Origin: Eledone cirrhosa
Taxonomy: Eukaryota
Reading direction: 5' to 3'
Assembly (NCBI GenBank): GCA_964016885.1
Contig: OZ024751.1
Location: forward strand, 15,376,001-15,440,000
Length of the DNA stretch: 64,000 bases
The position numbers and the translations under genes were made by a program. Position 1 is the first letter of the stretch. The number at the start of each line of letters is the position of its first letter. Below are positions 3,259 through 55,569 of the stretch, piece after piece. Below the pieces are notes generated by a model. It did not search any database, was not told the origin of the DNA, and saw nothing but the letters and a program-made list of their open reading frames with translations.

Positions 3259-3654
3259 TGTCAATCAATTTCTAGTTGATATAAATGCTCAGATCTATTC
3301 ATTGGAATCTTTGACCATATTCTACAGTGGATATGGCGCATGTCTCTCAGACATGACACCCTTAATTTAATTTTGGATATATATATATATATATATATAT
3401 ATTGAAAGGATAACAAGGACGATTGGTTACTCCTGCATTACATTTATTTTTGTCGCTCATAACTCCACCACCGCCACCACAAGGCACAACTCCATACCTC
3501 AACAATCATTAACTGAAGTTAATGATTTAGCTGTCGAAACGGCTCGAGCTCAGCCGTTGGGGTCCTACTCATTCCTATCACCCACTCTACTACCCTAAGT
3601 ATTGAGTACTTTGGTGCGTTATTGTCCATCTGGTTCCTTACCACATTTCCTTCG

Positions 3655-3691
<37 letters not shown>

Positions 3692-3900
3692 ATAAAGAAA
3701 TACACAGATACATGCAGACACATACATAAATATATCCACATATATCCCTGAATTTGTGGTGCCAACCTCACCGTTGTTGCAAAATAATCCGAATGCATTA
3801 GATTGATTTAGTATCAGAGCTATATAATACATTATAAAGGAAGAAGAAACATTAGATATAATTAATAATAAGATATACCATACCCAAATTCCTTCATTAG

Positions 3901-3955
3901 TCCTCGACTACGTAGTTTCATGGCATATTATGCAAAAACACTACATCACAGAGAT
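3901..3955 (-). ncRNA. Decayed hammerhead ribozyme motif
   Basis: Minus: atctCTG-TGAtg...GAAAC TACGTA GTC gagga; palindromic stem III and GUC site intact, core lacks one base, stem II poor. Confidence 0.45.
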
Positions 3956-4239
3956 ACAGTATTTTTGTGAGGTCTGCCAACTTATCAAGAGGATACCTCA
4001 TTTAGAGTTTCAAAACACATCCGCAGGACGCGAGATAGAATCCCTAAAGGCAGAGGGGGGAGTCAATCACGTGATACAGCGGTTAAGAAACAGAGCTAAG
4101 CCTCTTACAACCAAGAAAAAAATACCACAAAGGCGGCGGGGGTACTTATATCAAAGCCGTGGAAGAGATGGCTAGGATGGCGAGAAGTATGAGTAATGAT
4201 AGCTTTCCAGCAGTCACTACACTTCAATGGTTACTCTAC

Positions 4240-4525
4240 CGGGAACTGATTCTGGCTCGATTTCTACAGCTGAATTCCCTTCCTAACACCAACCTCATTT
4301 TCAGTGAGTGCTGGGTGTTTTTTTGCTGTGGCGCCTACACGTCCACTTTGCAGTGGAATGATATGGACTGGGGTCCCTATCATCTCATTTCTACAGCTGA
4401 GTAAACTGGAGCAATGTGAAATAAAGTGTCTTGCTCAAGGAAACAACACATCACCAGGTCTGAGAATTGAACTCTCAACCTTTTGCAGGCAAGGCCAATG
4501 TTCTAACCACTAAGCCATGTGCCTT
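4240..4525 (-). mobile_element. tRNA-derived SINE, family B (RTE-type tail)
   Basis: A box ggcttagtggttaga, B box gagttcaattctc, body gtgttgtttccttgagcaagacact; at least 8 copies in the window. Confidence 0.88.
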
Positions 4526-4790
4526 CACATATCATCATCATCGTTTAACGTCCATCTTCCACGCTTGCAATATATATATATGTGTGTATATACACATACA
4601 TTAGGGTTAGGAGAGCTTCAGTGGCTATATGTGTGGTCACGTCAGTGTTTATGTGTGTATGTAGTAACATCAGAGTGTGTGTGTGTTAGTGTCAGTCTGT
4701 GTGTGGTAGTGTCAGTGTGTGCGCCATACTAAAGTGTCAATGTGTATGTGTGGTAATGTCTGTGTGTGTGCGTGCGCCAAGCAATAGTGT

Positions 4791-4821
<31 letters not shown>

Positions 4822-5175
4822 CCATGCAGTAGTGTCAGTGTGTGCTATGCAGTAGTGTCAGTATGTCAGTGCGTGCGTGTGTGTGTATACATACATGTAT
4901 ATGTAAATATATAATATACAGTAGAAAGGAAAGACGACAGTGAAAGTGGTGTTTTCTCAGAAAACACTCCAGTTATTCAAGTTACCAAGGAGATGTCACC
5001 TCATTATCACCACCACCACCACCACCACCTCATTATCACTCACATCATCACAATATATATATATAACACCACTGTGGTATATATACAATACCACTGTGAC
5101 ATATACACAGCATCTGTGATATATATATATATATATAAACATAACCAGCACCTGTATATATGCGCAACACAACTG

Positions 5176-5219
<44 letters not shown>

Positions 5220-5468
5220 TGTAAGGTGGTCATGTAGGAGACACGGTGAAAAGGCTCCCAGTCCACACTGTAAATGTGGTTGGTGTTAGGAAGGGCATCT
5301 AGCTGTAAAAAAAACCTGCCAGAGACGCTTCCGTGCGACCGAGGCGTGGTCTCCCGACCATTCCTGCATCAAATGGAACAAAACCGTCTAATCTATGCTA
5401 GCGTGGAAGATGGACGTTAAAAGATGATGATGATGATGATACACAACCTCTTTTATAAACCACCTGTG

Positions 5469-5502
<34 letters not shown>

Positions 5503-5842
5503 ATGATGGACAATTGAAAGAGCTCAACTAAATGTATATGGGTTTATAAAATCATACATATATATGTTTATACATAAATATAAAATTAATACACACATAC
5601 AGTACAAAAATACGAATATTTCCGTGAAAATAGGAGCAAAATTATGTAGATAAATCTACCAAGAGTTTATGGTAGTGTCCAATCCGTATGAAGAACTCAA
5701 TGTATTCCGGATATCATGGAAAGAAGAGATGTAATGAAAAATCACTTTCGGTGAAAGATAAACGGTATACAGAGTCAAGATAAAATATTAAACAAATAAT
5801 GAATAAAACAATGAAACAGTTCCTTATATTAAACAAAAAAAG

Positions 5843-5997
5843 TTCATTATTTAACGATCGTTTCTAGGATATATATGTGTTAGAATTGGCATGCATATTC
5901 AACAGATCTATGTACAAAATTATACAAAATTATACAAACTATCAAGATTAAATATACATACCAAACACACATATACGCCGTCTTCAGAAATAATGAA
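5843..5997 (-). ncRNA. Type I hammerhead ribozyme with ~115-nt stem II
   Basis: Minus: UUCAUUAUUU CUGAAGA [long imperfect hairpin] GAAAC GAUC GUU AAAUAAUGAA; perfect 10-bp stem I, palindromic stem III. Confidence 0.8.
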
Positions 5998-6074
5998 ATA
6001 TATTTATATATATATATATATATATATATGATAAAGAACACAAGAGCGTCTACAACATCAAAAGATTTTTATTG

Positions 6075-6120
6075 GCTTACAATGTTTCTTCCTTACGGAA
6101 ACCGTAGGATTCATCAGAGC
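6075..6120 (-). ncRNA. Minimal type I hammerhead ribozyme
   Basis: Minus: GCU CUGAUGA AUCCUACGG UUU CCGUAAGGAA GAAAC AUU GUA AGC then cAAUAAA; inside a ~115-bp insert between (TA)n tracts. Confidence 0.82.
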
Positions 6121-6196
6121 TATAAAAGGGGTTTGATTGGTGTTATATATATATATATGAAAAATGGTGTGCTGCATTGTTGCAAATGGGATACAT

Positions 6197-6333
6197 ATGA
6201 ATAAAATTAGAGCAGAAGATAAGGCGTCCATCATCAGTGATCTTCCAGCCATCTTTAATGCGAAGAAATACCAATGACGGCTGGAAGATCACTGATGACG
6301 GACGCCATGTCTTCTCGCTCTAATTTTATTCAT
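6197..6333. repeat. Hairpin (~55-bp arms) abutting (TA)n, each arm containing CTGATGA
   Basis: atgaataaaattagagc..ggcgtccatcatcagtgatcttccagcc / ggctggaagatcactgatgacggacgcc..gctctaattttattcat. Confidence 0.85.
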
Positions 6334-6481
6334 ATTATATTATATATATATATATATATTATATATTATATAATATTATATATATATTATATATATATAT
6401 TATATATATATTATATTATATATATATTATATATATATATTATATAATATATTATATATATATATTATATATATATTATAT

Positions 6482-6514
<33 letters not shown>

Positions 6515-6664
6515 TATATAATATATTATATATATATATTATATATATTATATTATATAATATATTATATATATATATTATATTATATATATATATTATA
6601 TTATATAATATATATATATATATTATATTATATATATATATTATATTATATATATATATTATAT

Positions 6665-6740
<76 letters not shown>

Positions 6741-6920
6741 ATATATATATATATATATATATTATATTATATATATATATATATATATTATATATTATAT
6801 TATATATATATATATTATATTATATATATATTATATATATATATTATATAATATTATATATATATATTATATATTATATATATTATATATATATATATGT
6901 ATATATATACATATATACAT
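6334..6920. repeat. (TA)n/(TTATA)n microsatellite
   Basis: Nearly pure A/T simple repeat. Confidence 0.97.
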
Positions 6921-7103
6921 CTACAAAGTTGGTCTGTTTAGCAAAATATGAATAACTTTTAGAAAAAGGCGGGGAGTGTGATGTAGAATAGATTACAACA
7001 GATAGTGATGAGAGGGAAGGTGGATGAGATCAACATATTTATATCTAAATATATATATTACATATGTGTTTGTACATAGAACAATGATAAGAGACAGAAG
7101 TCA

Positions 7104-7373
7104 GACCACTTTGCAGTGGAATGATATGGACCCCAGTCCCTATCATCTTATTTCTACAGCTGAGTAAACTGGAGCAATGTAAAATAAAGTGTCTTGTTCA
7201 AGGAAACAACACATCACCCGGTCTGAGAATTGAACGGGTGATGTGTTGTTTCCTTGAGCAAGACACTGTATTTCACATTACTCCAGTTTACTCAGCTGTA
7301 GAAATGAGATGATAGGGACTGGGGTCCTTATCATTCCACTGCAAAGTGGTCGTAGAGGTGTCACGGCAAAAAA

Positions 7374-7419
<46 letters not shown>

Positions 7420-7560
7420 GAAGGGCATCCAGCCGTAGAAAACCTGCCAGATAGTCCTATATGAGCGAGACACGGTCACCCGACCAACCTTGCCTCAAAT
7501 TGGGACAACTCCCGTCTAACCCATGCTCGCGTGGAAGATGGATGTTAAACGATGATGATG
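7104..7560. mobile_element. Fold-back SINE family B (inverted arms 7104-7219 / 7236-7351) followed by (TA)n and RTE-type tail
   Basis: Same SINE body in opposite orientations ~16 nt apart; tail ends in (gat)n at ~7560. Confidence 0.85.
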
Positions 7561-7675
7561 ATATATACTCCAGGGAGTGTAACGTGAAGTTACTGTAGGT
7601 TCACCCGGGTGAGCACTCGTTGCTTAGGTTCACATCAGTATCGAGGTGTAGAGCTAGACAGAGTGTAATATAATA

Positions 7676-7815
7676 ATTGTTTCTACTTTTGGCACAAGGC
7701 CAGCAGTTACCCAGTACATTACTGGTACTTTATTTTATCGACCCAGTAAGGATAAAAGGCTAAGTTAACCTCGGCGGGATTTGAACTCAGAATGGCAAGG
7801 GCCGTAACTATGCGT
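7676..7815 (-). mobile_element. tRNA-derived SINE, family A (5'-truncated)
   Basis: Reverse complement of gagttcaaatccc...ataaaataaagtaccagtaatg...ccttgtgccaaaagtagaaacaattatt. Confidence 0.88.
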
Positions 7816-7817
7816 CA

Positions 7818-7984
7818 TGCAAGGATGAGTGGTTACTTCTTCATTACGTTTATTGGTTGGTGACAAGGTTCGATCTGGCCCAACTCGGACCAGATCGATA
7901 CAGATTGGACCTTGAGCTGATCAGTAGTGAAACACGTGTCACCAACCAATAAATGTAATGAAGAAGTAACCACTCGTTCTTGTA
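7818..7984 (+). repeat. Hairpin insert (~48-bp arms) carrying the 3' half of a hammerhead
   Basis: gagtggttacttcttcattacgtttattggttggtgaca / tgtcaccaaccaataaatgtaatgaagaagtaaccactc; GAAAC ACGT GTC accaacc AATAAA on plus. Confidence 0.75.
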
Positions 7985-8059
7985 TTATATATACCAGTAA
8001 TGCACTGGGTAATTGCTGGCCTTGTGCCAAAACTAGAAATAATTATATATATATATAAG

Positions 8060-8246
8060 GGGCGGTGGATTGGCAGTACTGGTAGAGGGTTGGACGCCAT
8101 GCTTTGTAGTGCAGAGTTACGACCCTTTACGGTCTGAGTTCAAATCCCACTGAGGTTAACTTTGCCTTTCATCCTTACGGGGGTCGATAAAATAAAGTAC
8201 CAGTAATGTACTGGGTAATTGCTGGCCTTGTGCCAAAAGTAGAAGC

Positions 8247-8250
<4 letters not shown>
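8060..8250 (+). mobile_element. tRNA-derived SINE, family A (full length)
   Basis: A-box-like tggcagtactggtagag, B box gagttcaaatccc, central gcctttcatccttacgggggtcgataaaataaagtaccag. Further copies near 18740-18970, 21460-21625, 24560-24710, 26945-27128, 30870-31040, 33017-33125, 37943-38155, 39155-39310, 40650-41045 and 47770-48455. Confidence 0.9.
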
Positions 8251-8286
<36 letters not shown>

Positions 8287-8474
8287 TTGATGGTTTAGCG
8301 AGACAGTGTGTAGATTTTGACTGGATATATATGTGTATATATGTATATATATATACATAAGAACGAAGTGGAGAAGCTACATTCTTATTATATACACTAT
8401 GTAACTCCTCCACTTTGTTATTATATACACTCTGCTCTGCATTGAGTACTTTCACCAATTTTCTTTGGACCTTC

Positions 8475-8505
<31 letters not shown>

Positions 8506-8509
<4 letters not shown>

Positions 8510-8897
8510 GGTGTTGGATGCTTAAGGCGTCTGTATGCGGTAGGCCGTATGAGCACTCAATGCTCTCATAGAGCAGAGTATGATATCACAGAAAAAAAGA
8601 GAATCAGTATTGCGACGAATGGAATTTATTGGACATATTACAATCGTTTCTCTGGCGACCAGGCACGATCAATGTGTTGATTGAACCTGACTCTGAAAAT
8701 CGCAAGGTCCTCAGATACGTCTTGATTCTACGATTCTACGAGCTGGTCGCCAGAGAAACGATTGTAATATGTCCAATAAATTCCATTCGTCGCAACACTG
8801 ATTCTCTTTTTTTCTGTGATGTGATATACTCTGCTCTATGAGAGCATCGAGTGCTCATACGGCCTACCGCATACAGACGCCTTAAGCATCCAACACC

Positions 8898-8901
<4 letters not shown>
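8506..8901. mobile_element. Fold-back insert (~157-bp arms, ~80-nt loop) between (TA)n tracts, probably a PLE pseudo-LTR with 5' inversion
   Basis: Arms 8506-8662 and 8743-8901 are near-exact reverse complements; contains a hammerhead. Confidence 0.85.
8632..8721 (-). ncRNA. Type I hammerhead ribozyme
   Basis: Minus: GACGUAU CUGAGGA cCUUGCGA...UCGCCAGa GAAAC GAUU GUA AUAUGUC cAAUAAA; 7-bp stem I with one G-U. Confidence 0.8.
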
Positions 8902-8928
<27 letters not shown>

Positions 8929-9164
8929 CCACCACCCCACTCTCAAGAGCGTGAAATTAATAAACATTCGTTGTACTGCCTCTCTGTCTTGTTCCTGTTC
9001 AAATTTTCCATTATATATATATATATATATATGCAAAAGTTTTATTTAAGATTGTTGGGTTACAACGAGTAAATATTTTATAACTGATATAAAAGCACTC
9101 AACAGTTTCTGGAGTAGGTTTACGATATTAAACAAATGGAAACTATATTTATAAAACCATATTT

Positions 9165-9228
9165 ATTTCGTTATATATATTTCTGGGATATCATATTAAA
9201 AATATGGTATGCCTTCCTCAGACAAAAT
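9165..9228 (-). ncRNA. Minimal type I hammerhead ribozyme (left-arm copy)
   Basis: Exact reverse complement of 9255-9318. Confidence 0.78.
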
Positions 9229-9254
9229 ATAATACATAAGCTGTTTTATATTGT

Positions 9255-9318
9255 ATTTTGTCTGAGGAAGGCATACCATATTTTTAATATGATATCCCAG
9301 AAATATATATAACGAAAT
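9255..9318 (+). ncRNA. Minimal type I hammerhead ribozyme (right-arm copy)
   Basis: AUUUUGU CUGAGGA AGGCAUACCAUAUU UUU AAUAUGAUAUCCCA GAAAU AUAU AUA ACGAAAU aaa; 7-bp stem I, palindromic stem III, AUA site, overlapping AATAAA. Confidence 0.78.
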
Positions 9319-9359
9319 AAATATGGTTTTATAAATATAGTTTCCATTTGTTTAATATC

Positions 9360-9423
<64 letters not shown>

Positions 9424-9658
9424 GACTTCTACAGGACTTATACTTTTTCATTCGTATGAAATAATCAGGAATGTTCAATCCTGGTGATTTCATACAATTG
9501 AAATAGTTCTAGTCTTGTACAAGTCACCCCCCCCCCCGTCTCTCTCTCTCTCTATATATATGTATATGCACCCCGACCACCTGGGAGTGATGGGAAAGGA
9601 GAGAAGACAGTATGTAACTGAACAGAAAGCGAGTTTTAATGCACCAATGCTCCTTTTA

Positions 9659-9718
<60 letters not shown>

Positions 9719-16648: not shown

Positions 16649-16702
<54 letters not shown>

Positions 16703-17103: not shown

Positions 17104-17161
<58 letters not shown>

Positions 17162-17192
17162 AGAACAAAAGATGGTTAAAGGAGTTCCATGT

Positions 17193-17261
17193 ATTTTATT
17201 ATGCGCATTTCAAAAACAAATATCATCATGCAATAATATTTGTGTTTTCATCAGATAAAAC
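17193..17261 (-). ncRNA. Minimal type I hammerhead ribozyme near the 3' end of an ~870-bp insert (17160-18030) between (TA)n tracts
   Basis: Minus: GUUUUAU CUGAUGA AAACACAAAUAUUAUUGCAUGAUGAUAUUUGUUUUU GAAAU GCGC AUA AUAAAAU; palindromic stem III, overlapping AATAAA. Confidence 0.83.
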
Positions 17262-18029
17262 AGGAGGACATGATATGAAGGCTAAAAAACACTTGTGGAT
17301 AGTTCAGTTTTAAATCAACATATGAGAAGTAGTTTTAGATTGATGTGTGATATTGGGAAAAATATTTTATTTAGAGGGGGTGGTGGGGGTGGAAAGGATG
17401 AAAAAAAGAGGAGGAGATGAGAGTGAAGGTGGAGAGGGAGGAGTATAGTGAGGAAGGATGAGATAGGAGGGGAGATGGGTGATAGAGAGAGAGAGATATA
17501 GTTTTTATAACTGAGAAAGATATATTGTTTTACATAGAGAGGTTGAAAACCGTTGGAAGATAATGTATAAATTAAAAGAATTTGAAAATTAACGAAGAGA
17601 AAAAGAGAAAAATATGTGCGAAGAAAGAGAAGGAGTTAATATGTATTGAGAATAATGAGTTAGATGATAGAGAGAAAAGAATAATGAACTGCGGATGAAT
17701 ATTCTAACGTCAAAAAAAATTGTATATGTTTACGAAGGATTTTTATAAGGTGATATAGAGTAAGAATGTGTTGTATTATGTAATAATTGATTCTATGTTA
17801 GGCAAGAGTGAGAAAAGGTACAGATTAGGGGTTAGATATTAGAAGAGAAGAAAAGGAAGTGATAAATATGGGTGATGTAGAAAGAGTAAAACAGGTATTA
17901 TAGAAATTTGAAAATTAACGAAGAGAAAAATAATGTAAAGTTAAGGTTTGTATATTGAAGGATTTGATAATATGTGCTTCTTATCCGATATCTTCATTGC
18001 TTTATTGTACTACAATAAAACTCACCTCC

Positions 18030-18079
<50 letters not shown>

Positions 18080-18200: not shown

Positions 18201-18972
18201 TTGCTTCAACAAACGTTTTCAGATAAGAAATCTCGCAAAACAAATTCAAAAACGAATTATATATATATAAATAAAAGGATTATTAACACGGACAAGCGAT
18301 ATATTAAAGTATTATTCCAAGCATTAACATATGTTTCATCACCTAATAAGCAATTAATTTATGTCTTGAAACCGCTATCATCAATAGTTGATTGGCTATT
18401 GTGAAATTCGATTTTTAATACACAAAACAATGCAGTCACTAGAGGAATTATCAAAATACTGAAATAATCCTCGGTACAGATTACTTGTAACCTGAGCTTA
18501 TATAACCTCAAACGATATCTCGTTTACTTTGATATATATATATATATATATATTTTTAATGATTTGGTGTTAGAGAATAAAAACTAATGATAAAATAAAT
18601 ATTTTTTTTTTTAGCCCCAACCCCCACCCACCCCATTCACAAGGGTACGTGACCCTAAGCTATGGCTTATTTAGTTTATAGGTAAGTCCAGCACTGCTCA
18701 CAGTTAAGACATTGTTCAAATTGGTACATCGAAAAGAACAAAAGGATGAAATATTGATTTCGAGTTTAGGCAAAAAGTCAGCAGATTTGGGGTATGGGTA
18801 AAGTTGATTAAATCAACCTTAGTACATGACTGGTACTTTATTTTATTGTCCCTGGAAGGATGAATGGCAAAGTTAACTTTGGCAGGATTTAAACTTAGAA
18901 TGTAAAGGGCCAGAACGAATACCACAATGGTATTTCATCTGGTGCTCTACCAATTCTGCCCGTCAACCACCC

Positions 18973-22141: not shown

Positions 22142-22215
22142 AGATCTGTGATTGCCATGCATGGTCAGCCTTTGTTCACGATACTCTGGATTCACGGGTT
22201 AGAGCTGATTAAACC

Positions 22216-22440
22216 CCTCCCAGGTAAATACCAACACACATACAAGTCCAACTCCTCCCAGGTAAATACCAACACACATACAAGTCCAACTCCTCCCAGG
22301 TAAATACCAACACACATACAAGTCCAACTCCTCCCAGGTAAATACCAACACACGTACAAGTCCAACCCTTCGCAGGTAAATACCAGTACACGTACAAGTT
22401 CAACCCCTCCCAGGTAAATATCAACACATGTATAAGTTCT
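22216..22440. repeat. Minisatellite, 38-bp unit x ~6
   Basis: cctcccaggtaaataccaacacacatacaagtccaact. Confidence 0.95.
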
Positions 22441-35199: not shown

Positions 35200-35585
35200 T
35201 ATTGCCGTCAAATTTTCACATAAAAGAATTCCGTTATCGGCGCCAACTTTGAAACGAATACGTATGCTCGGTGTCACACCAAATTACTCCCTCCTAACAC
35301 AATTTCCAATAAACAAAACATAAAAATGAATATAATTTAATTGGAAACATCACAATAATAATAAAATAGAGAAGAATATGAATCTATTTTAATTTTCTAA
35401 TTTTGAGACTTAACTTTTATAATTCAGTTAAATTGATTATCATTTTAGTTATTGGACCACGATGGTTTTACGTCACGTGATCCCACAGCGGTGTAAGCAG
35501 AAGTTAAGTTCCTTTAGAAGACTTTAGGCTGTGAAGAGAACTTATGCCTTGGCTTCTATATTATAAAATATTCTAAGTAAGTATT
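35200..35585. promoter_or_regulatory. Probable bidirectional LYAR/METTL6 promoter with METTL6 non-coding exon 1 (donor ~35577)
   Basis: Divergent genes; ttacgtcacgtga (overlapping CRE-like/E-box) at ~35468-35480; plus-strand donor ctaa/gtaagt. Confidence 0.55.
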
Positions 35586-36802: not shown

Positions 36803-37486
36803 ATATAAATTATAGCGCATATACAAATGGATGTGTGTTTTGGTAGTTTGGGGAGAAAAACATCGTTATCTTTTGTTCTGGCAGCGGTTCGTTTGTCCAC
36901 CCTTGTTGCACGTGGTCCTAGATGTGTGTATTACCTGTTTGTGTGTTTTTATTCTTTTTTCCTTTCCCTTATCTTTCTTTTTTCTCTTTATTTGTAATAT
37001 GATGATGGTTATGTTGACAAATAAAGTTTTATCATATAAATATATCTAATGATTAAGTATGACCCTTTAACATCCTGTAATTATTTAGTAGAATATGTCA
37101 AGAAACGGGTTTGTCTATTCACATGTTTATAGTATCTTCACCAGTGGATAGATTGTTGTGAAAACATGCAGTGCTAGAGCAAAGATTTTGATTTTGAATG
37201 CCATGCAGTCGTCATGCAAGGGCCGGCTGAATTTTCATGAAGGAGTGATGCTAGTTCTGTGAAATCTTGCATGCTTTAATTTCAACTCGTCTTATTGATA
37301 ACTACTTTGTTTCTTTCCTGAGTTTATGTTGAAAAATAAACCTTATTTGGTCAGCCTATGCACTTTTCAACCAACCCTTGTATTGTTGCTTTGTACTTTT
37401 CAAGAATGTTTTGCTTCTGCGACTTCATGTGGTACAGGACGTTAAAATTTAAAATACTAACATTTTGTTTGTTTTTCTTTCTAGGT

Positions 37487-37732
37487 ATGTTGGAAACTGA
37501 GCCAGTGTTGAGTGAAGACAGTAAAATGTCTTCCCATATTTTGACACCCGAAGAAGTTGCTAAATTAGAGAAGGACCAAAAACTCGTATCTGAATACAAA
37601 CAAAATAAATTTGAGAAAGATGCTTGTAAAAACTGGGATTTGTTTTATAAACGGAATACAACAAAATTCTTTAAAGACCGACACTGGACAACTCGAGAAT
37701 TCCAGGATTTATTGAATGAGTCTGATTCTAAT
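37487..37732 (+). CDS. METTL6: tRNA N3-methylcytidine methyltransferase METTL6, coding exon 1
   Basis: Acceptor ttctag at 37484; MLETEP...KQNKFEKDACKNWDLFYKRNTTKFFKDRHWTTREF...DSN; donor gtaaga at 37733, phase 0. Confidence 0.95.
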
Positions 37733-39761
37733 GTAAGACTAATTCTTCTTTTCTTCGCCCACTTATTCCTCAGAGGGTCGTGGGGCAGAGACCTCAAACA
37801 CTCCTTCCAGCGGGTCCTGTCAGAAGCAACCATCTCCAACTGATCCGGCTGGATGCCCAAGCGTGACCAGCAAGCTCGTGGATGTTATCCAACCATCTTG
37901 CCCCAAGACTAATTAAAAAAAAAAATTGTATTATTTCCAAAAGGTGGTGGATTGGCAGAATTGGTAGAGCATCGGATAAAATACAATTGCTGTATTTGTT
38001 CTGGATCTTTACATTCTGAATTCAATTCCCACCAGGATCAACTTAGACTTCCATCTTTCTGGGGTTGGTAAAATATAGTACCAGTTAAATACTGAGCTGA
38101 TTTGATCAATATTGCCCTCCTAAATTTGCTGGCTTTGTGCCTAAATTAGAAATTATTTTTTATAATTTCTGGTTTCTTTTTGTTACCCAATGTCTTTTTG
38201 AAAATAGAGTGAAGTAATTTGAGTCCCTGGCTGAGCTGGCTCCGACTGACCAAACTTGGAATGGGCCCCTGTCACGCGTTGTGGACCCCACCACTTGATT
38301 TCATAACGTTGGTTTAGTTTTTAGTCTGTATTGAGAAGTGGGAGTGGATAGAGGAGTGTGAAGTTACCAACTTTACCTTTAGCTCCATTGATTAAAATTG
38401 CTTTAGAAACTTTATCACCCCAAGCTCCATAGGAAGCAAACGGAACTAAAGATGACGATTAGGATAATGATGAATGATTACCTCCCTTACACTCCTTTTT
38501 ATTTTCATCATTATAAAATCTATTTTCCATGCTTGCATGGTTTAGAAAGCTGCCATGTGCTGAGGCCAAATTGGTCAGGAGATTAGGGATCTTGCTCATA
38601 TGCTTTGTTTTGGCTTGGTTTCTATGATTGGATGCTCTTCCTAACGCCAACCACATTTCAGCTTGTATTTGAAGCATGGTTTCTATGGCTGAATGAATGC
38701 TCATCTTAACACCAACTTCTTTACAGCATGTACTGGAAACATTTTATTGTGGCACTAGCACTACCAACTTATATTGTGAACTAGGTGCTCTTGTTATGGC
38801 ACCATCACAAATATTAAGGTCCTACCGAGACTCATCTTTCAATCACTGGATTCAGAGTGCTAACTATTACACCATAGAACCTTTTTATTGTTTAGAAATA
38901 TTTATAAATTAATGATTTTCTTTTCTTCGATTCAGTATGGGTGTAATTTCAGTTACATAGCTGCATACATGATCCTGTAACTCCTGGGGAAGTCATAGGG
39001 GCGTTGTATTGATATACAAGGTTTCTAGGGCATTTTAAAACTTGGAAGAGCACATCTCTATTCAGGTCTGAATACAGTATATTTCTTCCAGGGGAAATTA
39101 AAGAGTGAGAGAATGGAAGTGAGGAAGAGATATAGAGGAAGAATCGATGATGATGAATCAACCCCAGTACTTGACTGGTACTTTTTTTATCGACCTCGAT
39201 TGGATGAAAGGTAAAGTTGACCTCGGTGGGATTTAAACTCAGAGCATAGAATTGAAACAAATACCATAAAGCATTCTATCAGACCTTCTAACGACTCCAC
39301 TAATTTGCCACCCAGTTACGTATATACTCATGTATAAGCCACACCTTTTTTCAGAAATAATAATCACTTAAAGAAAAGCAATCTATATTATTAATCATTG
39401 ATTAGTAATGTTCTCAGTGTGTTTATTCCTGATTTAGCAACTAAACTAAAATCATGTAGGGTTGAAAATAATCCTTTAGTGCTGCTGAGGGCATAACAAA
39501 CACTCGAGTGCTTGTGCTGTGATAAAATGTACCCTGTATACTCTGTAAAGTAGTAGCAAATAAACTAAGACCATGTAGTGTTGAGAGAGCCACTTTAGTC
39601 TTGTTGAGAACATAACCACACTTCTAGTGCTGGTGCTATGTTAAAAAGCTTCCAGTACACTCTGTAAAGTGGTTGGCATTAGGAAGGATATCCAGGCATA
39701 GAAACCAAGCCAAAAATGATTTAGACAACTTAACCCATCCAGTATTAAATTGTGACAACCT

Positions 39762-44560: not shown

Positions 44561-44598
<38 letters not shown>

Positions 44599-47696: not shown

Positions 47697-48698
47697 GCTA
47701 AAGGGTTAAAAAGTCTCATGCAAACAATGCTAGCATAGAAAATATAAAAACAATGCTGAAGCTGGTAGTGTTGGTGGTGATTGGCAGAATCGGTAGAGCG
47801 TTGGAAACCATGCTTTGCAGCCTAGAGTTATGTCCTTTTATGTTCTGAGTTCAAATCCCTCCAGGGTTAGCTTTGCCTTTCATCCTTATGGGTCGATAAA
47901 ATAAAGTACCAGTAATGCACTGGGGTTGATTTAATCGACTTTCCCCTCTCCCCCAAATTGCTGGCCTTGTGCCTGTAGTAGAAATCATTCAAATCCCGTC
48001 GAGGTTAACTTTGCCTTTCATCCTTACGGGGTCGATAAAATAAAGTACCAGTAATGTACTGGGATAATTGCTGGCCTCGTACCAAAAGTAGAAACTATTA
48101 TTATTATTATTATTGGTAGAGCATTGGACACCATGCTTTACAGCATAAAGTTATGGCTCTTTACGTTCTGAGCTCAAATCTCGCTGAGGTTAACTTTGCC
48201 TTTCATCCTTATGGGGTTGATAAAATAAAGTACCAGTCACGCACTGGGGTCGATTTAATCAGAAACCATTATTATGGTGGATTGGCAGTATCAGTAGAGG
48301 ATCAGACAACATGCTTTACAGCATATAATTATGTCCCTTTACGGTCTGTTCAAATCCTGTTGAGGTTAGCTTTGCTTTTCATCCTTAGGGGCTTGTTAAA
48401 TTACTAGGGTCGATTTAATTGATTTTCCCTTTCCCACAAGTTGTTGGCCTTGGCGCTTAACCCTTTAGCATACGCATTGCTTTATATATACTATATTTTC
48501 ATGGTAAACGCTTTACCTCGCATAATTATCTCACATAATATCGAATCTATGAGATTTTGAAAGTATTTATTTTAAGAACAATACCGTAACATCAGTTTGA
48601 ACGACCAGTTACAGCCAATTTCAACAGAAAGAGGTAGAGAATTCTGGCCGGTTTGAACATTAAAGGGTTAAAGTAGAAACAATTATTATTATTATTAC

Positions 48699-49343
48699 TT
48701 ATATGCTTTCCAGCATAGTTACGTCCCTTTACGATCTGAGTTCAAATCCCGCCGTGGTTGACTTTGCCTTTCATCCTTACGGGGTCGATAAAATAAAGTA
48801 CCAGTAATGCACTGTGTAATTGCTGGCCTTGTGCCTAAAGTAGAAACAATTATTATTACTTATATACTTTCCAGCATAGTTACGTCCCTTTACGATCTGA
48901 GTTCAAATCCCGCCGAGCTAGACTTTGCCTTTCATGTTTACGGGGTCGATAAAATAAAGTACCAGTAATGCACTGTGTAATTGCTGGCCTTGTGCCTAAA
49001 GTAGAAACAATTATTATTACTTATATGCTTTCCAGCATAATTACGTCCCTTTACGATCTGAGTTCAAATCCCGCCGAGGTTGACTTTGCCTTTCATCCTT
49101 ACGGGGTCGATAAAATAAAGTACCAGTAATGTACTGTTTAATTGCTGGCCTTGTGCCTAAAGTAGAAACAATTATTATTACTTATATACTTTCCAGTATA
49201 GTTACGTCCCTTTACGATCTGAGTTCAAATCCCGCCGAGGTTGACTTTGCCTTTCATCCTTACGGGGTCGATAAAATAAAGTACCAGTAATGTACTGGGT
49301 AATTACTGGCCTTGTGCCTAAAGTAGAAACAATTATTATTACT
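48699..49343 (+). repeat. Tandem array of four 161-bp headless SINE-A units
   Basis: Units start at 48699, 48860, 49021 and 49182. Confidence 0.95.
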
Positions 49344-49409
49344 TAAAGTATCCAACTATAGTAAACACAATCTGCAGTTTTTTTTTTATTCATTCTTTCT
49401 TTCTTTCAG

Positions 49410-49552
49410 ATTATACTGAATATTTACTGCGTGATGCAGGTTATGACATCTGTCAACTTCACTATGTAAAACGGGAGACAGTCAACAAGAAAGAAGGACT
49501 TTGTGTACCCCGTATATTTATACAGGGGAAGTTCTCTGTGGCAACATCGTGA
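49410..49552 (+). CDS. METTL6: METTL6 coding exon 5 (last); full protein ~273 aa
   Basis: (D)YTEYLLRDAGYDICQLHYVKRETVNKKEGLCVPRIFIQGKFSVATS*; acceptor tttcag, phase matches exon 4. Confidence 0.95.
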
Positions 49553-49646
49553 AGCCCTGTGTGTGTTTGTCTGTATATGTATCATCATCTTCATCATTGT
49601 CATTTTTATATCTGTTTAAAAAAAAACGCTGATGATGATGATGATG

Positions 49647-49680
<34 letters not shown>

Positions 49681-49682
49681 TA

Positions 49683-52447
49683 TGTGTATGGAAGTGCAAT
49701 TGTACAATCTAAGCCACAAGCAGGTTCGAAAACCAACGGTAGCAATGAAAATGTATTGAAGATAACTGAAGATATTCTAGCTCTATTGTTTGCATAGAGC
49801 ACTCTGTTTCTTTTATCTATTTGAAGGAATCATTCAACACTAATCATACAGCACCTCATGAGGAATGATTGATGCAATGTCTTGTCTTTCATACCAAGAT
49901 TGGCATCTTTTAGCCCGGCAAGTTGAGCACCCTAAAATTACAAGGATATAAACCAACACAAGATGAATTTATATGAGCCCGATTATTCCACACACATAAT
50001 ATACCCACACCAACCATCACCACTTACACCACACTGCTGAGAGAGAAAGCAGGAAATGTGAGTAGACAAATATACCCACACCAACCATCACCACTTACAC
50101 CACACTGCTGAAAGAGAAAGCAGGAAATGTGAGCAGAGAAATATACCCACACCAGCGAACAACATTTATAACAAACTGCTGAGAGAGAAAGCAGGAAATG
50201 TGTGCAGACTGAGATGGACAGCACTACTTTTCAAAGAAGTGTTAGCTACGACCCACCACTGACCATTTTAATATCAGGTCAAGTCTGTTTCCTCCTAGAG
50301 ATAGACAACTAGCACCATTGGAAGTGGACTTGTTACACACAATTAATATAACATTCTGTGAGTACCATAACAATTTCCAAGCTAAACTTTCTCATGACAT
50401 TAACAAATTTAAATCTTCTAAACATATTTTTGTCTTCTCTGATGAAACAAAAAACTTATACTGAGTAGATACACTAATAGAATCAACTATTACTTAATAC
50501 TAACGAATATCAGAAAGCTAAACTAACCACCTATAATAATATTAACAATGATGTTAAACATTTAAATATAGATAAAAGAACGGAAAGCTGAGCCAAACGT
50601 AGTTCTTATATCACTTTGAAGGATCATAAAAATAAATTTAATAATAGGCCTAGTTGTAGATTAATAAACCCAACTAGAACTGAGATAGGACTAGCTAGTA
50701 AGAAGATACTAAGAGATATAAATAAACGTACTAACAGTAAGGCCAGCCAATTACAGTGGATTAACACATCCGTAATATCTTGGTTTAACAAATTCCTGTT
50801 AAAAATAGAGCTAGATTCAGACAGTTTGACATCATAGACTTCTACCATTCTATTACTCTTGCACTATTAGATTGAGCTTTACAATTTTCCTGCAACTCAG
50901 CCTGATCACTGACCGAGAAATATAATAGATGTAATTATGCATACCAGAAAAATGCCACCTGGGTTAAAAAATCAAACCCAGAGGTTCCTTTCGACATCTT
51001 GATGGTAGATGTCTGTGATTTGGTTGGATTATGTATCCTCCATACCCTCAAAGAGAAATTTCCAGACCATACCATTGGCCTCTATCGTGATGATGGCCTG
51101 GTTGTCTCCTATAACAATGGCCATTCCCTAGATAAGTTGTGTAAGGACCTAATACAGACCTAATGGTAGACACTACCTTAACTAATGCAAATTTCTTAGA
51201 CGTTAATTTAGATTTAGTCACAGGTACCTATAGGCCCTACCATAAATCCCATGAAAAATTAAGATATTTCAACAGAGGGCCTTGCCACCCTCCCAATAGT
51301 ACATAAAAACCTGGTTCTTAACATTAGTCGTAGGATCTCAAATTATTTTCTTTAAGGAAATATGTAAGGCTGCCCCATACTAAAATAGATTAGTGATCGT
51401 AGTTTCAAGGATAGGATTACATATATACTAAAAAGTACCAACCAAAATAAAAATAGGAATATCATCTAGTTCACACCACCCTACTCCTTAGCAGTGAAGA
51501 TTAACATAGGTAGAAAGCTCTTACAACTAATAGATAGGCACTTCCCCCTTTAGCATTGGTATATTTAATTGTCACTTAATGATAGTTAACTACTTTTGTG
51601 GTCCATCAATGAAGTCAAAAAGAACACCACAGGACAACCCAGGATGCTCATGTAGGAAAAATATAACTTAAGATTAGTAGTGTATGAAGCCATGATTATA
51701 GCAAATGGAAACGGCCAATCGGCTGCAAATCAATGATAAGTGGGCATGACACAAGACCTCTTTAAACAGTGGTACTTCTTGCATATGGCATCATTTAAGC
51801 ACCAACATCTGAGAAAACCAATGGCAATGGCCACTCAAGTATGGGAGCTTAAAGACTATACAAGATAGAATGGAGCATCTAGGAGAAAACCAAGTCCTAC
51901 ATTAAACGAACAAAATGGTGTTCACTTTATATTAGTGATAAATCCAGGATATTACCCGAACAGTAAAACTGGGGTGTTCCGAAAATGCCCACATATGAAC
52001 ACATATCTGCTTGCAGCATCAGCTAATTATATCACAAATCTACAGCCCCACCAAAATAGGTATAGTTACATATAAACACGTTTTGAGAACCAACCCTGAT
52101 ATGTTTACAATAAACTTAATAAGCAATATCACAGTAATATTACAAATATACAACTACCAGGAAAAGTATAATTGCATACACAAACTTATACTATCTTGCA
52201 TGCACACCTTAATAGAAACTTAATATGCACAACATTAGCAAGAGTTATTCCCCATGAATTAGGAAAAGCAAAATTATGTCATGATTAACCCCCTTGCAAC
52301 AAACACAATCTCATAAATAACGCCAGCCATCTTTCTTTTATAGTTGCCTGAAGGAAAATGACGCTTGTGGAAGTGCGACCATACAGTCTAAGCCACATGC
52401 AGGACTGGGAACCAATGGTAACAATGAAAATGTATTGAAGATAACTA
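49683..52447 (+). mobile_element. Decayed full-length Penelope-like retroelement (RT plus GIY-YIG-like C-terminus) with direct pseudo-LTRs
   Basis: TLKDHKNKFNNRPSCRLINPTRTEIG, FDIIDFY, GLYRDDGL, NFLDVNLDL, HPP, FTPPYS, VVYEA..GMT..VWELKD. ~85-bp direct repeats at 49683-49767 and 52363-52447; the right one carries TTGC CTGAAGG..GGAAC CAATG GTA (mutated hammerhead). Confidence 0.88.
49998..50205. repeat. ~70-bp unit x3 within the PLE 5' region
   Basis: atatacccacaccaaccatcaccacttacaccacactgctgagagagaaagcaggaaatgtgag. Confidence 0.88.
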
Positions 52448-52691
52448 TTCTATAATATGTATATATATATCATTATCATCATTGTTTAATGTCTATCTTC
52501 CATGCTAGCATGGAATTGAGGCAAGATTGGTTGGGTAACTGCATACATTACATTTCTCAAATCAACAATTCGGCAGTAAAAAGTTCGATATATATATATA
52601 TATATGTGTGTGTCTGTGTGTATATATATGTGATCATCGTCACCGTTTTACATCCGTTCTCCCATGCTAGCAAGGGTTAGACGGGTGTATA

Positions 52692-52818
52692 TATTAAAAT
52701 AACAGATTAAAGTTTAAGCAAAGAATCGCTGCTTTCACCCTTAACGGGATCTTCAGAAGATCCCGTTAAGGGTGAAAGCAGCGATTCTTTGCTTAAACTT
52801 TAATCTGTTATTTTAATA
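52692..52818. repeat. Perfect palindrome, 63-bp arms with 1-nt spacer, centred on a hammerhead core
   Basis: ...cccttaacgggatcttc A gaagatcccgttaaggg...; minus reads CUGAAGA UCCC GUUAA GGGU GAAAGCA..UGCUU. Confidence 0.92.
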
Positions 52819-52924
52819 AATATTTGCTCTACGGTTCTTATATATTTGATATATATTTATCCTTATCGAGCCCTCTTTGGATTTTAGTCTTCAAATTTAT
52901 TACTATATATATATATATATATTT

Positions 52925-53360
52925 TCTAGGGCGGGTAAAATTCCCGAGATCCATGGACGAGTTCTCTCCAACGGTCTCTGACCCTCACCATCGCTGCCAT
53001 GTGCTGCGTCTCCAATAGACCAGTGTCTGTCCTTAGGGTATCAACATACGTTAACCTTGGTCTTCCTCTTCCAGTGTGTCCATGTAGGGGCTCCTACAGG
53101 AGCACTGAATGCAATGTCAACTCTGGATGTCGGTGAGCATGTCCAGCTAACCTCAGTCTCCTCTGTGTCACTTTTGAGCTGACTTTTGGGAGGCTCCCAT
53201 ATAGCTCTGAGTTTTTCATCCTCAGTGTATACTGATTAATGTTCAGAGCCATCCTCAGCATTCTCGTGTAGCACCTATCCACCATCTGAGTGAGTTTCTT
53301 GGTCAGTGTCCAAGTCTCAGACCCGTACAGCAGCACAGACTCCACTACAGCAATGAAGAG
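52925..53360 (-). mobile_element. RTE-like LINE 3' fragment (related piece ~58290-58430)
   Basis: VESVLLYGSETWTLT..YTRMLRMALNI..RRLRLAGHAHRH..RGRPRLTYVD. Confidence 0.82.
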
Positions 53361-53364
53361 GCGG

Positions 53365-54185
53365 ATAGTAAAGTTTTCCTAGCTGTTATTATTATGTCTA
53401 CTTCTCTTCTAGTGAGGCTTGATCTGTTCATGGCTGAGATCAGTGCCTTGTTAAGGATGATTGGGGATATAGATGCGTAGTAGTTCGTAATGTCCAATTG
53501 GACTAATCGAACATTCGACTTAGTTTCAATGGCACAAAACCAGTCTATTACCTCCTTTGTACAAGACCATAGGCTGAGTTTAGTTCTAATCTTAAAGTTC
53601 AGGTAAGATTCGGTCAATGATTGATTTGCTAAGTCTACCAAGGTCCGATTTGGAGGGGTCTATGAGCCTGACCGGTAGTTTTGACTGGAAGTCCGGTTTA
53701 TGGTCTTTAATGGATATTCTCAGTGTCCTAGGGTTGTAAGGAAAGGTCCTGTCGTCAATACTCAGTTCGGTCATTATTGATTTCGCCTGCTTATTTATGT
53801 GTGGTAGGTTTTCTCGTGTTGATGTTTTGTATATTTTAGAGATTTCGTTTGTAATGCATTTGTTGTAGGTTTTGTACTCTAAATTATATAGGTTTCCAGT
53901 TTTATCCGCTGGTACAATAATCCCAGTGCTATTCTTGATCCGTTTTAAGGTAGAGGAGAGTCCAAGCAGGAATGCACTTCTGTCAGGGTTTCGCGGTGGT
54001 TTCCTGAATCTAATTTTCCGGATCATGGTAATGATCCTGCTCTCAAATTCCTCAAGGAGTGGGTTGTGCGGTGGGTTTTTCGTCGATTTGAAAAGTCTTT
54101 TTATGTGGTTGGTGGGATTGTTAATTGATCCAGGGGCCCTCCTGTTGTTGTAGTGGTAGGCCCTCCAACGGATCCTCCTGATGAT
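53365..54185 (-). mobile_element. Penelope-like element RT, N-terminal half (one frameshift)
   Basis: RRIRWRA, VPADKTGNLY, ISIKDHKPDF..PVRLIDPSKSDLGRLSK, LWSCTKEVIDWF, LDITNYYASIS; homologous to but divergent from the 49.7-52.4 kb element. Confidence 0.88.
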
Positions 54186-54348
54186 TTATCATCATCATCA
54201 TTTTACGACCGCTTTTCCCTTCTTGCAAGGATGGGACGGGAACTGATTCTGGCTGATTTCTACAGCTGGATGCCCTTCCTAACACCAACCTCATTTACAG
54301 TGAGTGCTGAAATTACATGAATCAAAGTTCTGTTCAAACCATTTATTA

Positions 54349-54393
54349 GCCTACAATTGTTTCGTCCAAACCGAGGTTTGGAGTCTTCGGAGC
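54349..54393 (-). ncRNA. Minimal hammerhead motif with U4C core variant
   Basis: Minus: GCU CCGAAGA C UCCAAAC CUCG GUUUGGA C GAAAC AAUU GUA GGC uAAUAAA. Confidence 0.7.
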
Positions 54394-55569
54394 AATTTTT
54401 CAATGATTGTTTACATACATGACCTCCTTTCCAACACAAGAGACATACAGAAACATATGTATATATCGATGCACAGTGGGGTGACATCCATTATAATATT
54501 TTAGCATGGCAATTTACATTCAAAAATTAAAACAAAATTAAAGTTAAAATACAACATCGGCAGTTTACGAAATAATGCAAGAGGGAAGTTTGAAGTAGTT
54601 AGTGTATGCAATAGTTACACGTGGGGCATGCACGTGTGTCTTATTTATATAAGATTATAGTACGGCAAGGTGTTATATGCAATACAAGCACTTTAAGCGG
54701 GTAATCAAGAGTATTATGGGGGTTGTATTGGTGAAGTATTTTTTATGTATGATAAAGAAGCTTGTGGGCAGAGAAATATTAAAAATGAGAAGCATAATAA
54801 TGTTATGGTTTTTGTATACACCACCATTTTCACAATCCAGGAGACGTAATATATAGATTATATGTCCTTCATATAATTAACGATGATTCAGTATTGGATG
54901 CTTGATGTATTGGTTAGATTATTACAGCTTGTTCTTTAATCCAATTTTATAGAGCAGGTTGTTTTTGTTGTGAGAATTTACATCGTTTTATTTTCCGGAA
55001 GTATGTGTGATTAAGGGGAGGTAACTAGCTGATTTCTATAACTAAATTTATTATTCCAATGTACATTAAACGGTGTTCCAATTGAGTCCCTTACATATAT
55101 GGTTATAAACAGTTTTTAAATTTAAGTATCCTATCTTTAAATTACAGTCTACTCTATCAAGAAGTACTAATATCCATATTAGGATGATTACCCTCTATCA
55201 TAGAGTGCCACAACTGAAAATTCCATATGAAGAGTCAGATCTCCAAATCAATGATCTTTGTAAATGTAGTCTACCCACAGAACCTGGCAGGGTTTTATTA
55301 TTAGAACCACGTCTATATACAACCCCTGGTAAGCTCTGGGTCAGTGCATGTCTGATTGCACGGCAAAGTTAAATATCTCTAGGGTAGACCAGAGAGCAAT
55401 TCTCACTTACAATGTCATTAATCTGTCTATCAAGTCATACATGTATGTATAACTCGTATACCACTTGTACATAATTCATTGTACTCAACATAAAGGTTAT
55501 ATAGCTCTTTTATGTTAATAAATTAATCTTCAATTTATCCATACATACAACAACATTTGCACAAATAAT

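Follow-up and report, generated by a model that had tools for sequence, protein, structure and literature searches.

The window analysed here, a 64,000-nt stretch of the Eledone cirrhosa genome, contains short inserts beside (TA)n tracts that resemble minimal hammerhead ribozymes, which raises the question of what kind of element left them and what the ribozyme contributes to its spread. The original prediction named six intact motifs. A descriptor of the type I hammerhead (CUGANGA, stem II, GAAA, short stem III, UH, stem I) returned exactly these six, versus a mean of 0.02 and a maximum of one in 100 dinucleotide shuffles (500-nt blocks). The same descriptor found 42 canonical motifs in a 594-kb genome sample versus 0–2 in shuffles, i.e. 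~70 per Mb, and the 94 per Mb of the window (6 in 64 kb) is not out of line with this density. By extrapolation from the sample, the genome is estimated to hold ~2x10^5 canonical hammerheads; it may thus exceed the axolotl, which has 126,247 in a tenfold larger genome. Rfam reported 145 matches in the window, none of them to a hammerhead family, in agreement with the predicted dense ribozyme layer that annotation misses.

Requiring a base pair straight after A9 reduced the recovery to one of the six motifs, because the other five are mismatched there; in the five canonical window families this position reads C.A, A.A, C.A, A.A and A-U. The G10.1-C11.1 pair, a trait of minimal hammerheads in Penelope-like elements (PLEs), is absent from all six. 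The hammerheads at 5843, 9165/9255, 17193 and 3901 have a perfectly palindromic loop 3 and those at 6075 and 8632 an imperfect one; of the 42 sampled motifs, 28 are fully palindromic in this loop. Stem covariation, which had been anticipated, is visible across ten families, where pairing is kept at 37 of 40 positions of stem I versus 21.3 after permutation, a count that is partly circular as the stems were read by pairing, and among f4-like subfamilies, where an A-U pair of stem I is swapped for G-C.

The inserts belong to eleven families (f1–f11, Table 1), where roughly ten had been proposed, and several supposedly damaged copies had to be reinterpreted. What had been taken for a half copy at 3901-3955 is part of a complete U3-A8 hammerhead (fold z = -3.8), and the core of 54349-54393, regarded as a private mutant, is the family state, found in 30 of 40 copies of f6. 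The motif at ~52710-52756 is a minus-strand CTGAAGA created at the centre of a palindrome, whereas the family itself, f7, reads CAGAAGA (U4A) in 51 of 88 copies and has a 3-bp stem II and a 5-bp stem III. Altogether, five families show family-wide core changes. Longer copies of f9 read TTGAGAA or CTGAGAA. In the 594-kb sample, f7 is represented by 11 copies and the C3-A8 branch of f9 by 20, which ranks both with the most abundant ends. Luense et al. (2017) reportedly dealt with variants of PLE hammerheads and may cover these cores. A further possible U3-A8 motif lies at 18315-18466 (-), its core type being common in shuffles.

Table 1. Hammerhead-bearing ends and related pieces in the window.
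Feature	Position	Strand	Description
f8 remnant	3398..3513	-	3' end piece and rearranged upstream piece; BLAST to f8 reference
f9 end	3524..3655	+	Hammerhead 3' half; bulged hairpin from 3584; terminates in (TA)n
f9 half hammerhead	GAAA 3536-3539	+	6-bp stem III; predicted cut after 3558
f10 end	3682..4240	-	Complete U3-A8 hammerhead 3901-3993, core TTGATAA from 3988
f1 end	5501..6007	-	Hammerhead 5843-5997, core from 5987; hairpin from 5775
f2 end	6030..6146	-	Hammerhead 6075-6120, core from 6117; descriptor span 6068-6127
f8 tail piece	7559..7672	-	Without ribozyme
f8 end	7820..7983	+	Hammerhead 3' half (GAAA CACGTG TC); inverted 5' copy 7820-7864
f3 end	8506..8908	-	Hammerhead 8632-8721, core from 8714; descriptor span 8629-8724
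f3 end, further parts			Hairpin from 8579; inverted copy 8739-8908
f4 end	9012..9362	-	Hammerhead 9165-9228 with tail; descriptor span 9162-9231 (-)
f4 inverted copy	9249-9362		Mirror hammerhead 9255-9318; descriptor span 9252-9321 (+)
f5	17147..18030	-	Covers ~800 nt of the 3' region; from 17974, a tail piece in inverted orientation
f5 hammerhead	17193-17261	-	Core from 17254; descriptor span 17190-17264
f11 decayed element	49689..52458	+	End piece 49689-49848; RT fragments 50508-51343
f11 second end	52343-52425	+	Worn hammerhead
f7 end	52688..52906	+	Inverted at ribozyme core
RT fragment, Hydra-type	53372..54167	-	Broken; 40-57% identity to f1 ORF
f6 end	54309..54779	-	Hammerhead 54349-54393, family core CCGAAGA (U4C)

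Elsewhere in the 3.0-Gb genome, all eleven families are linked to reverse transcriptase/endonuclease (RT/EN) ORFs, f6 and f10 through a single locus each, and each has hundreds to thousands of candidate copies. The f1 end, whose hammerhead has a 116-nt stem II domain and whose copies are 98–100% identical, stops in the window a few nt short of the family's ATG; elsewhere it is followed after 360 nt by an intact 813-aa ORF, within tandem arrays of up to five units (~6.65 kb each), each unit with a microsatellite-rich spacer (3.7 kb, range 3.56–3.98 kb); spacers are 99.6–100% alike per array. Read by eye, this single ORF contains YRDD followed by IVY...YIG...R, that is, an RT with a C-terminal GIY-YIG endonuclease, as well as the Hydra-clade motifs RWR (K to R), SDKTG, CNCRNKANC, CRLC and CNH. 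The CxxC + CxH region recurs in fragments of other families, 118 homologues were found, and the endonuclease regions of nine families share 24–52% mutual identity. Pfam gave no match above cut-off for the intact f1 ORF or the two window RT fragments, and none for the ORF at 55846-56484, for which all Atlas matches were below 0.9. The window fragment at 53372..54167 is located downstream of the f6 ribozyme with a SINE-like insert in between, and we infer that it belongs to f6. At ~6.65 kb, the f1 unit far exceeds the length given for the Hydra clade ("generally <3 kb"), which is a tendency in the Hydra paper and no strict criterion; the 3' regions are long, about 0.9–1.3 kb in f3–f7 and f9 and 3.7 kb in f1. 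Placed by these motifs, the families are very probably Penelope-like retrotransposons with Hydra-clade features. A metagenome scan for DNA of relatives yielded 597 pattern matches, of which none was confirmed. In four contig sets mapped on f1, depth was higher over the ribozyme region; these contigs are uninformative on ends, splicing and expression.

The copies show the insertion structure of PLEs, with partial tandems (junctions seen in f1, f2, f3, f7, f8 and f9), inverted 5'-truncated copies and an optional tail. In each family the 3' ends fall into two clusters and run into (TA)n, f1 being exceptional in having a third end close to the ATG; the f2 end in the window terminates at the first fixed site and is flanked by (TA)n on both sides. 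Tails measure 65–170 nt versus 30–40 bp in the Hydra paper. The 5' ends range from +23 to beyond -500 and are partly clustered, in f4 and f5 at about -120 to -130 and in f7 at about -45. The cut site is spanned by 85 of 96 incidental copies, and two begin within 3 nt of it. As predicted, (TA)n is targeted: a (TA)5+ tract follows within 200 nt downstream in 31 of the 42 sampled motifs versus 21% of random places. Inverted 5' truncation of the PLE type, likewise foreseen, occurs in five of the eleven window families (at 8632, 9165, 52710, 7928 and in a tail-only piece of 17193), but it is an optional part and not a fixed component of one architecture, and among the 29 long-stem motifs sampled from the genome only 6 have it. 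A similar qualification holds for the AATAAA said to follow the motifs. In four of the six (6075, 8632, 9165 and the mirror of 9165) it occurs in exact form no more than 10 nt from the cut site, and it is absent at 5843 and 17193 and from families f9 and f10; in the sample it lies within 20 nt in 15 of 42 motifs versus a background of 1.5%. Considered as a candidate poly(A) signal, AATAAA overlaps stem I in f2 and f4, and inserted copies continue past it without a poly(A) tail.

The inserts had been described as sequence-unrelated, yet downstream of the ribozyme all eleven families share a hairpin of the form RCTC-helix-2-nt-bulge-GAGY (background frequency 1.9%). It begins between -1 and +6 nt relative to the first fixed 3' end, a site that was placed by eye for f8, f9 and f11. 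Its inner pairs are Watson-Crick in 29 of 33 cases versus 15.3 permuted, a value reached by none of 20,000 permutations, and its outer pair is A-U in six families and G-C in five. In f11, two of four inner positions pair, and in f5 the hairpin overlaps the family's end. A second hairpin follows past the far end in f1, f2, f3, f7 and f9 and, in worn form, in f8. The folding advantage of single hairpins over shuffles is modest (z -1.0 to -2.5), and the predicted fold of the copy at 8429 differs from the motif. By eye, the hairpin is also present in the published coral and sea-cucumber consensus sequences Hydra-2_Amil, Hydra-1_Ajap (twice) and Hydra-2_Ajap; Hydra-1_Obim and Hydra-1_Crog have altered forms only, and the Hydra-1_Amil consensus ends ahead of the hairpin position. 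The hairpin likely sets the start of reverse transcription. We lean, by a small degree, towards the broader proposal that the hairpin, usually doubled, is a clade-wide signal in corals, sea cucumbers and octopus-like molluscs that would recruit the Hydra RT, fix two internal starts and so explain the tail.

With this in mind, we consider it highly probable that the motifs represent type I hammerhead folds within pseudo-LTR ends belonging to eleven Hydra-type PLE families, and that the short inserts likely arose as 5'-truncated products, in some cases inverted, of copying begun just upstream of the bulged hairpin. In such a mechanism, the RT/endonuclease would nick (TA)n DNA and begin copying there, the element protein binding the hairpin and priming at AT-rich bases on its 5' side. 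A pair of hairpins would provide two start sites, with the intervening stretch as the optional tail, and a second priming event could yield the inverted copies. As reverse transcription would cross the ribozyme, the template RNA would have to be uncut or re-ligated. The ribozyme is probably active only in dimeric form or when protein assists it in tandem transcripts, and it is probably dispensable for insertion. Probably the majority of copies in the genome are silent, and for inverted pairs we predict long hairpins that abolish the ribozyme fold.

Other origins have to be weighed against this mechanism. Chance folding in AT-rich, palindrome-rich DNA might be suspected from the CTGAAGA at 52756, an inversion artefact, and from the relaxed cores TTGANAA and CTGANAA, which do arise in shuffles (0–5 and 0–3 matches, respectively); the shuffle controls of window and sample refute it for the six canonical motifs, and motifs recur at the same place within multi-copy families, leaving this explanation with practically no weight. 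Another idea, that the short inserts are non-autonomous retrozyme- or SINE-like units with own or read-through transcripts mobilised in trans, appears unlikely to us. Most copies do measure 100–300 nt, PLE-derived retrozymes are known (10.64898/2026.07.22.740005), and ORF-less tandem arrays with hammerheads (310 and 467 nt) exist elsewhere in the genome. However, these arrays carry other hammerheads and none of the window's motifs, no window motif lies in ORF-less tandem repeats with a hammerhead per unit, and longer copies reach 3' regions and ORFs in all eleven families; since each family is linked to an RT/EN ORF, the retrozyme reading offered in the original prediction was rejected for the window inserts. 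The 5'-end clusters of f4, f5 and f7 would fit such units, but 5' ends are otherwise scattered and the clusters may simply mark where alignments break off at inversions.

More serious, albeit still doubtful, is the possibility that the ribozyme is essential because templates are circular: dimeric hammerheads would cut tandem transcripts, a host ligase would close the resulting units, and reverse transcription begun at the hairpins would cross the re-joined cut site seamlessly and could circle repeatedly, generating arrays, as proposed in PMC4209133. The palindromes of loop 3, the stem I pairing retained across families and the highly uniform f1 arrays are in line with this, and cut-spanning copies are equally compatible with it. 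Moreover, with the hairpins located immediately 3' of the cut, a cut linear RNA would yield only ~50 nt of cDNA, which counts for circles. Against it, f7 and the C3-A8 branch of f9 are abundant despite cores expected to be weak, and an anole element inserts without cleavage (PMC11167929).

This genome bears on how PLEs choose internal start sites, why the tail is optional and what the hammerhead does: eleven diverged families share one small RNA element at their start sites, and natural core variants (U3-A8, U4C, U4A, C3-A8) come with copy counts. Together with the intact ORF of the young f1 family, this means that a standard in vitro assay could answer these questions; if the hairpin reading is true, this near-identical 813-aa family makes the model testable. 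At the same time, a large repeat layer is left unannotated by Rfam.

That Hydra-type ends carry hammerheads and lie in TA repeats is already known, octopus included: Hydra-1_Obim of Octopus bimaculoides has been described with a hammerhead and (TA)n targets (Craig et al. 2021, PMC8557442). The Hydra clade shares with our families RW(K/R), DKT, the CxCx5C linker, CxxC + CxH flanking the end of the endonuclease, (TA)n targets, a canonical hammerhead near the 3' end that is unpaired or mismatched after A9, inverted 5' truncation and an optional tail. It differs in that one family is listed there for octopus versus eleven in 64 kb here, in that the hammerhead row of Hydra-1_Obim is, by eye, matched by none of the window families, and in the long 3' regions and family-wide core changes seen here; the bulged hairpin lies within its published consensus sequences, and we found no mention of it in the accessible text. 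Metazoan PLE minimal hammerheads (Cervera and De la Pena 2014, PMC4209133) likewise are type I with a long stem II and short palindromic stem III, are largely solitary copies of truncated PLEs and include a U3-A8 variant core, whereas G10.1-C11.1, called conserved there, is missing from our six motifs, and about 2,000–9,000 hammerheads were counted per genome, with a different descriptor, versus our estimate. Metazoan non-LTR retrozymes (Cervera and De la Pena 2020, PMC7229834; Li et al. 2026, 10.64898/2026.07.22.740005) share type I hammerheads, PLE ancestry and high copy number, yet consist of ORF-less tandem units in contrast to the solitary or inverted ends of ORF-bearing families in the window. 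Finally, the Poseidon element PAc of Anolis carolinensis, in which internal RT starts flank the tail and the hammerhead is protein-assisted (Frangieh et al. 2024, PMC11167929), resembles our families in its two fixed ends around the tail, AT-rich targets and cut-spanning copies. It belongs to a different clade and has its starts in a stem-loop that is AC-rich and lies inside the ORF, while the window families have theirs in the 5' UTR, immediately upstream of the RCTC/GAGY bulged hairpin.

The window, AT-rich animal DNA with many (TA)n tracts (C11:15376001-15440000; genome size 2,996 Mb) of a host that is presumably octopus-like, judging by repeat types and genome layout, was originally predicted to hold six intact type I hammerheads. 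Our descriptor recovered all six and no others, against a mean of 0.02 motifs and a maximum of 1 in 100 block-wise dinucleotide shuffles. Because five of the six are mismatched directly after A9, as Hydra hammerheads often are (PMC8557442, supplement), a stricter descriptor recovers only one; Rfam annotation of the window lists no hammerhead family among its 145 matches. The motif at 3901, taken for a mutated or half copy, proved to be a complete hammerhead (fold z = -3.8) with core TTGATAA, which recurs in 20 of the 22 parsed copies of its family (f10), and a supposed CTGAAGA core at 52756 (minus strand) is created by an inversion centre. As for the architecture thought common to the inserts, inversion is found in five of the eleven families of the window and, in a genomic sample, in 6 of 29 motifs with a long stem II; AATAAA is indeed enriched (within 20 nt of 15 of 42 sample motifs vs 1.5% background), yet optional. 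For the inverted pairs of f3 and f4, folding predicts long, almost perfect hairpins (-308 and -168 kcal/mol, respectively), so that self-cleavage by these copies is unlikely. Inversion is not confined to ribozyme-bearing families, since SINE-like repeats adjoining (TA)n (7104-7351 and 7673-8252) form inverted pairs too. A near-perfect 250-nt palindromic insert without hammerhead core (2629-2885) has (TA)n tracts on either side.

Genome searches, with 40 candidates scored per search, showed every insert to be a repeat family, and the Penelope-like ORFs sought beside them were found in all eleven. Pieces matching the f1 protein lie beside f2-f11 in fitting position and strand. Many loci support the link for f1, f4, f5, f7, f8 and f9, two or three support it for f2, f3 and f11, and a single locus each does so for f6 and f10. 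Compared across nine families, the endonuclease regions share only 24-52% identity and thus represent distinct lineages. Family f1 forms tandem arrays that repeat about every 6.65 kb (five units on contig C6, two arrays of three on C1, and C2), each unit comprising a hammerhead, a 360-nt leader and an intact 813-aa ORF. Its protein has no Pfam match, and of 7996 candidates scored against it 118 are homologues (E <= 0.001); the protein carries RWR, SDKTG, YRDD, CNCRNKANC, an IVY...YIG...R region, CRLC and CNH, while the Hydra clade is defined by RWK, DKT, CxCx5C, CxxC/CxH and (TA)n targets (Craig et al., PMC8557442). The hammerhead inserts are real and mostly of a known kind, very probably new families of a known clade, the Hydra-type Penelope-like elements. 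The supplement of that paper lists Hydra-1_Obim of Octopus bimaculoides (2507 bp, (TA)n, own hammerhead); beyond it and a twister paper, we found no literature on hammerheads in octopus or cephalopods. For Octopus vulgaris, a repeat annotation from 2026 reports 31 recently active Penelope-like families, and its main text contains neither "hammerhead", "ribozyme" nor "Hydra" (PMC13282606).

From the f1 stop codon to the next ribozyme extends a spacer of 3.56-3.98 kb (eight spacers; 24% GC, 41-47% alternating purine-pyrimidine runs, 15-19 (TA)5+ tracts). Arrays on separate contigs, or far apart on one, share 95-98% identity in this spacer. The spacer moves together with the element, and f1 therefore spreads microsatellite-rich DNA along with its own target sequence. 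At L167:3921-6110, an f2 element spans about 2.1 kb between two ends; it seems to be without the endonuclease part, as its ORF match stops at residue 493.

Features of the window and genome. Candidate numbers are first-look lower bounds, not copy numbers.
Feature	Location	Strand	Candidates	Identity of best copies	Remarks
f1	5843-5997		at least 941	98-100%	
f2	6075-6120		at least 317	97-98%	
f3	8632-8721		at least 2930	about 92-94%	
f4	9165-9228, mirror 9255-9318		at least 464	98-100%	
f5	17193-17261		at least 855	98-100%	
f6	54349		at least 2153	98-100%	
f7	52710		at least 195		
f8	7928		at least 1885	88-91%	
f9	3524		at least 4372		
f10	3901-3993		at least 2449	about 92-94%	
f11	49689-52458		at least 64	68-86%	decayed end-ORF-end element
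f1 spacer	L084:4782-8520 (C1:183.74 Mb); also C6:49.53 Mb, C2:262.01 Mb, C1:126.84 Mb				(TA)/(TG)-rich
ORF-less tandem arrays, 310- and 467-nt units	L228:3350-4900, L232, L251:300-1750				short-stem type I hammerhead per unit; (TA)n at end
Tandem arrays of 92, 161, 38 nt	28832-30256, 48688-49345, 22212-22428				no canonical hammerhead
Single-exon LYAR-type gene (PF08790)	34066-35283	-			head to head with exon 37340-37843
Exon	37340-37843	+			translation presumably resembles a METTL2/6-type methyltransferase start
Open frame, 212 aa	55846-56484	-			no Pfam match; Atlas matches all below 0.9
Open reading stretch, 617 aa	62127-64000	-			extends past window end; we take it to resemble a LINE (RTE-type) reverse transcriptase

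Sixty 9.9-kb stretches taken at even steps along the large contigs (594 kb) contained 42 canonical motifs spread over 23 stretches, two or three of them spurious-looking by eye but kept, vs 0-2 in ten shuffles. This density of 71 per Mb (bootstrap 44-103) extrapolates to 1.3-3.1x10^5 motifs genome-wide; published totals, obtained with other descriptors, are 126,247 for axolotl and about 5000 for a mussel (PMC7229834). Stem II is long, as in the window, in 29 motifs and short in 13, the latter including ORF-less tandem arrays that look like retrozymes. A further family of short hammerheads, whose core is TTGAAAA (U3-A8) and whose loop is CCGG, recurs in the sample (L229:5826 (+), L261, L282 and L285). 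Scored by 3' halves and among the window's families, the sample is richest in f9 (20 copies), the f4 group (13) and f7 (11) and has no copies of f3 or f11.

Among 96 incidental copies of eight families (f1-f7 and f10; edges from BLAST), the 5' start precedes the predicted cut in 85, lies no more than 3 nt from it in 2 and follows it in 9. Copying may alternatively run from re-ligated RNA, a circular template on which the healed cut would leave no mark. In each family the 3' ends concentrate at two sites, for example +29/+118 in f7, +55/+139 in f3, +48/+216 in f6 and +72/+209 in f1. In all eleven families, RCTC lies at -1 to +6 nt from the first of these sites and pairs with the next downstream T(A/C/T)GAGY to form a stem that contains a 2-nt bulge; in shuffled DNA the same holds for 1.9% of RCTC sites. 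At the three inner positions, left free by the search pattern, 29 of 33 pairs are Watson-Crick vs 15.3 when permuted (0 of 20,000 permutations reach 29), with four pair types represented, and the outer pair is A-U in six families and G-C in five. Single hairpins have only modest folding scores (z -1.0 to -2.5), which counts against the motif. A second hairpin follows the far 3' end in f1, f2, f3, f7 and f9, worn in f8 and doubtful in f11 (readable tandem junctions). By eye, the PMC8557442 supplement contains the exact hairpin in the consensus sequences of coral Hydra-2_Amil and sea cucumber Hydra-2_Ajap and Hydra-1_Ajap (twice), and altered forms in Hydra-1_Obim and Hydra-1_Crog; the remaining one of its six new Hydra consensus sequences stops before the hairpin. 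A literature search for a published description gave only an anole paper (PMC11167929) and two on unrelated subjects, though supplements and subscription papers may mention it. At 8424-8452 (+), an RCTC...TTGAGT tail motif stands alone with (TA)n tracts on both sides and probably represents a twelfth family's end.

Counts of ribozyme cores may include one genomic copy twice where loci overlap. U3-A8, as in f10, is a known active covariation (PMC3088659); such a core and low dimer activity have been described for minimal hammerheads of Penelope-like elements, solitary ones of which derive from truncated elements (Cervera and De la Pena 2014, PMC4209133). Among 11 long f9 copies, five have TTGAGAA and five uncompensated CTGAGAA, and all 30 parsed cores retrieved with a U3 query have TTGAGAA. 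Family f6 has CCGAAGA (30/40), f8 a CCG-type core (12/16) and f7 CAGAAGA (51/88); U4C reduces activity in vitro (PMC3088659), and for U4A we found no report in the literature. That f7 and C3-A8 f9 are so abundant suggests that the ribozyme is dispensable. The fold is, however, under selection in most families, and the ribozyme thus probably acts in tandem transcripts.

Our study adds a cross-phylum hairpin at the probable start sites, core variants that occur naturally, and a young element that is still intact and can be used for tests. We infer that the bulged hairpins are likely landmarks for start sites, from which copying would mostly halt after 100-300 nt or flip, leaving short ends. In a Poseidon element, as described by Frangieh et al. 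(PMC11167929), the protein nicks AT-rich DNA and copying starts at two internal RNA sites flanking the tail; the hammerhead cleaves only with protein, and an element with a dead hammerhead inserts equally well. That scheme is compatible with our data.
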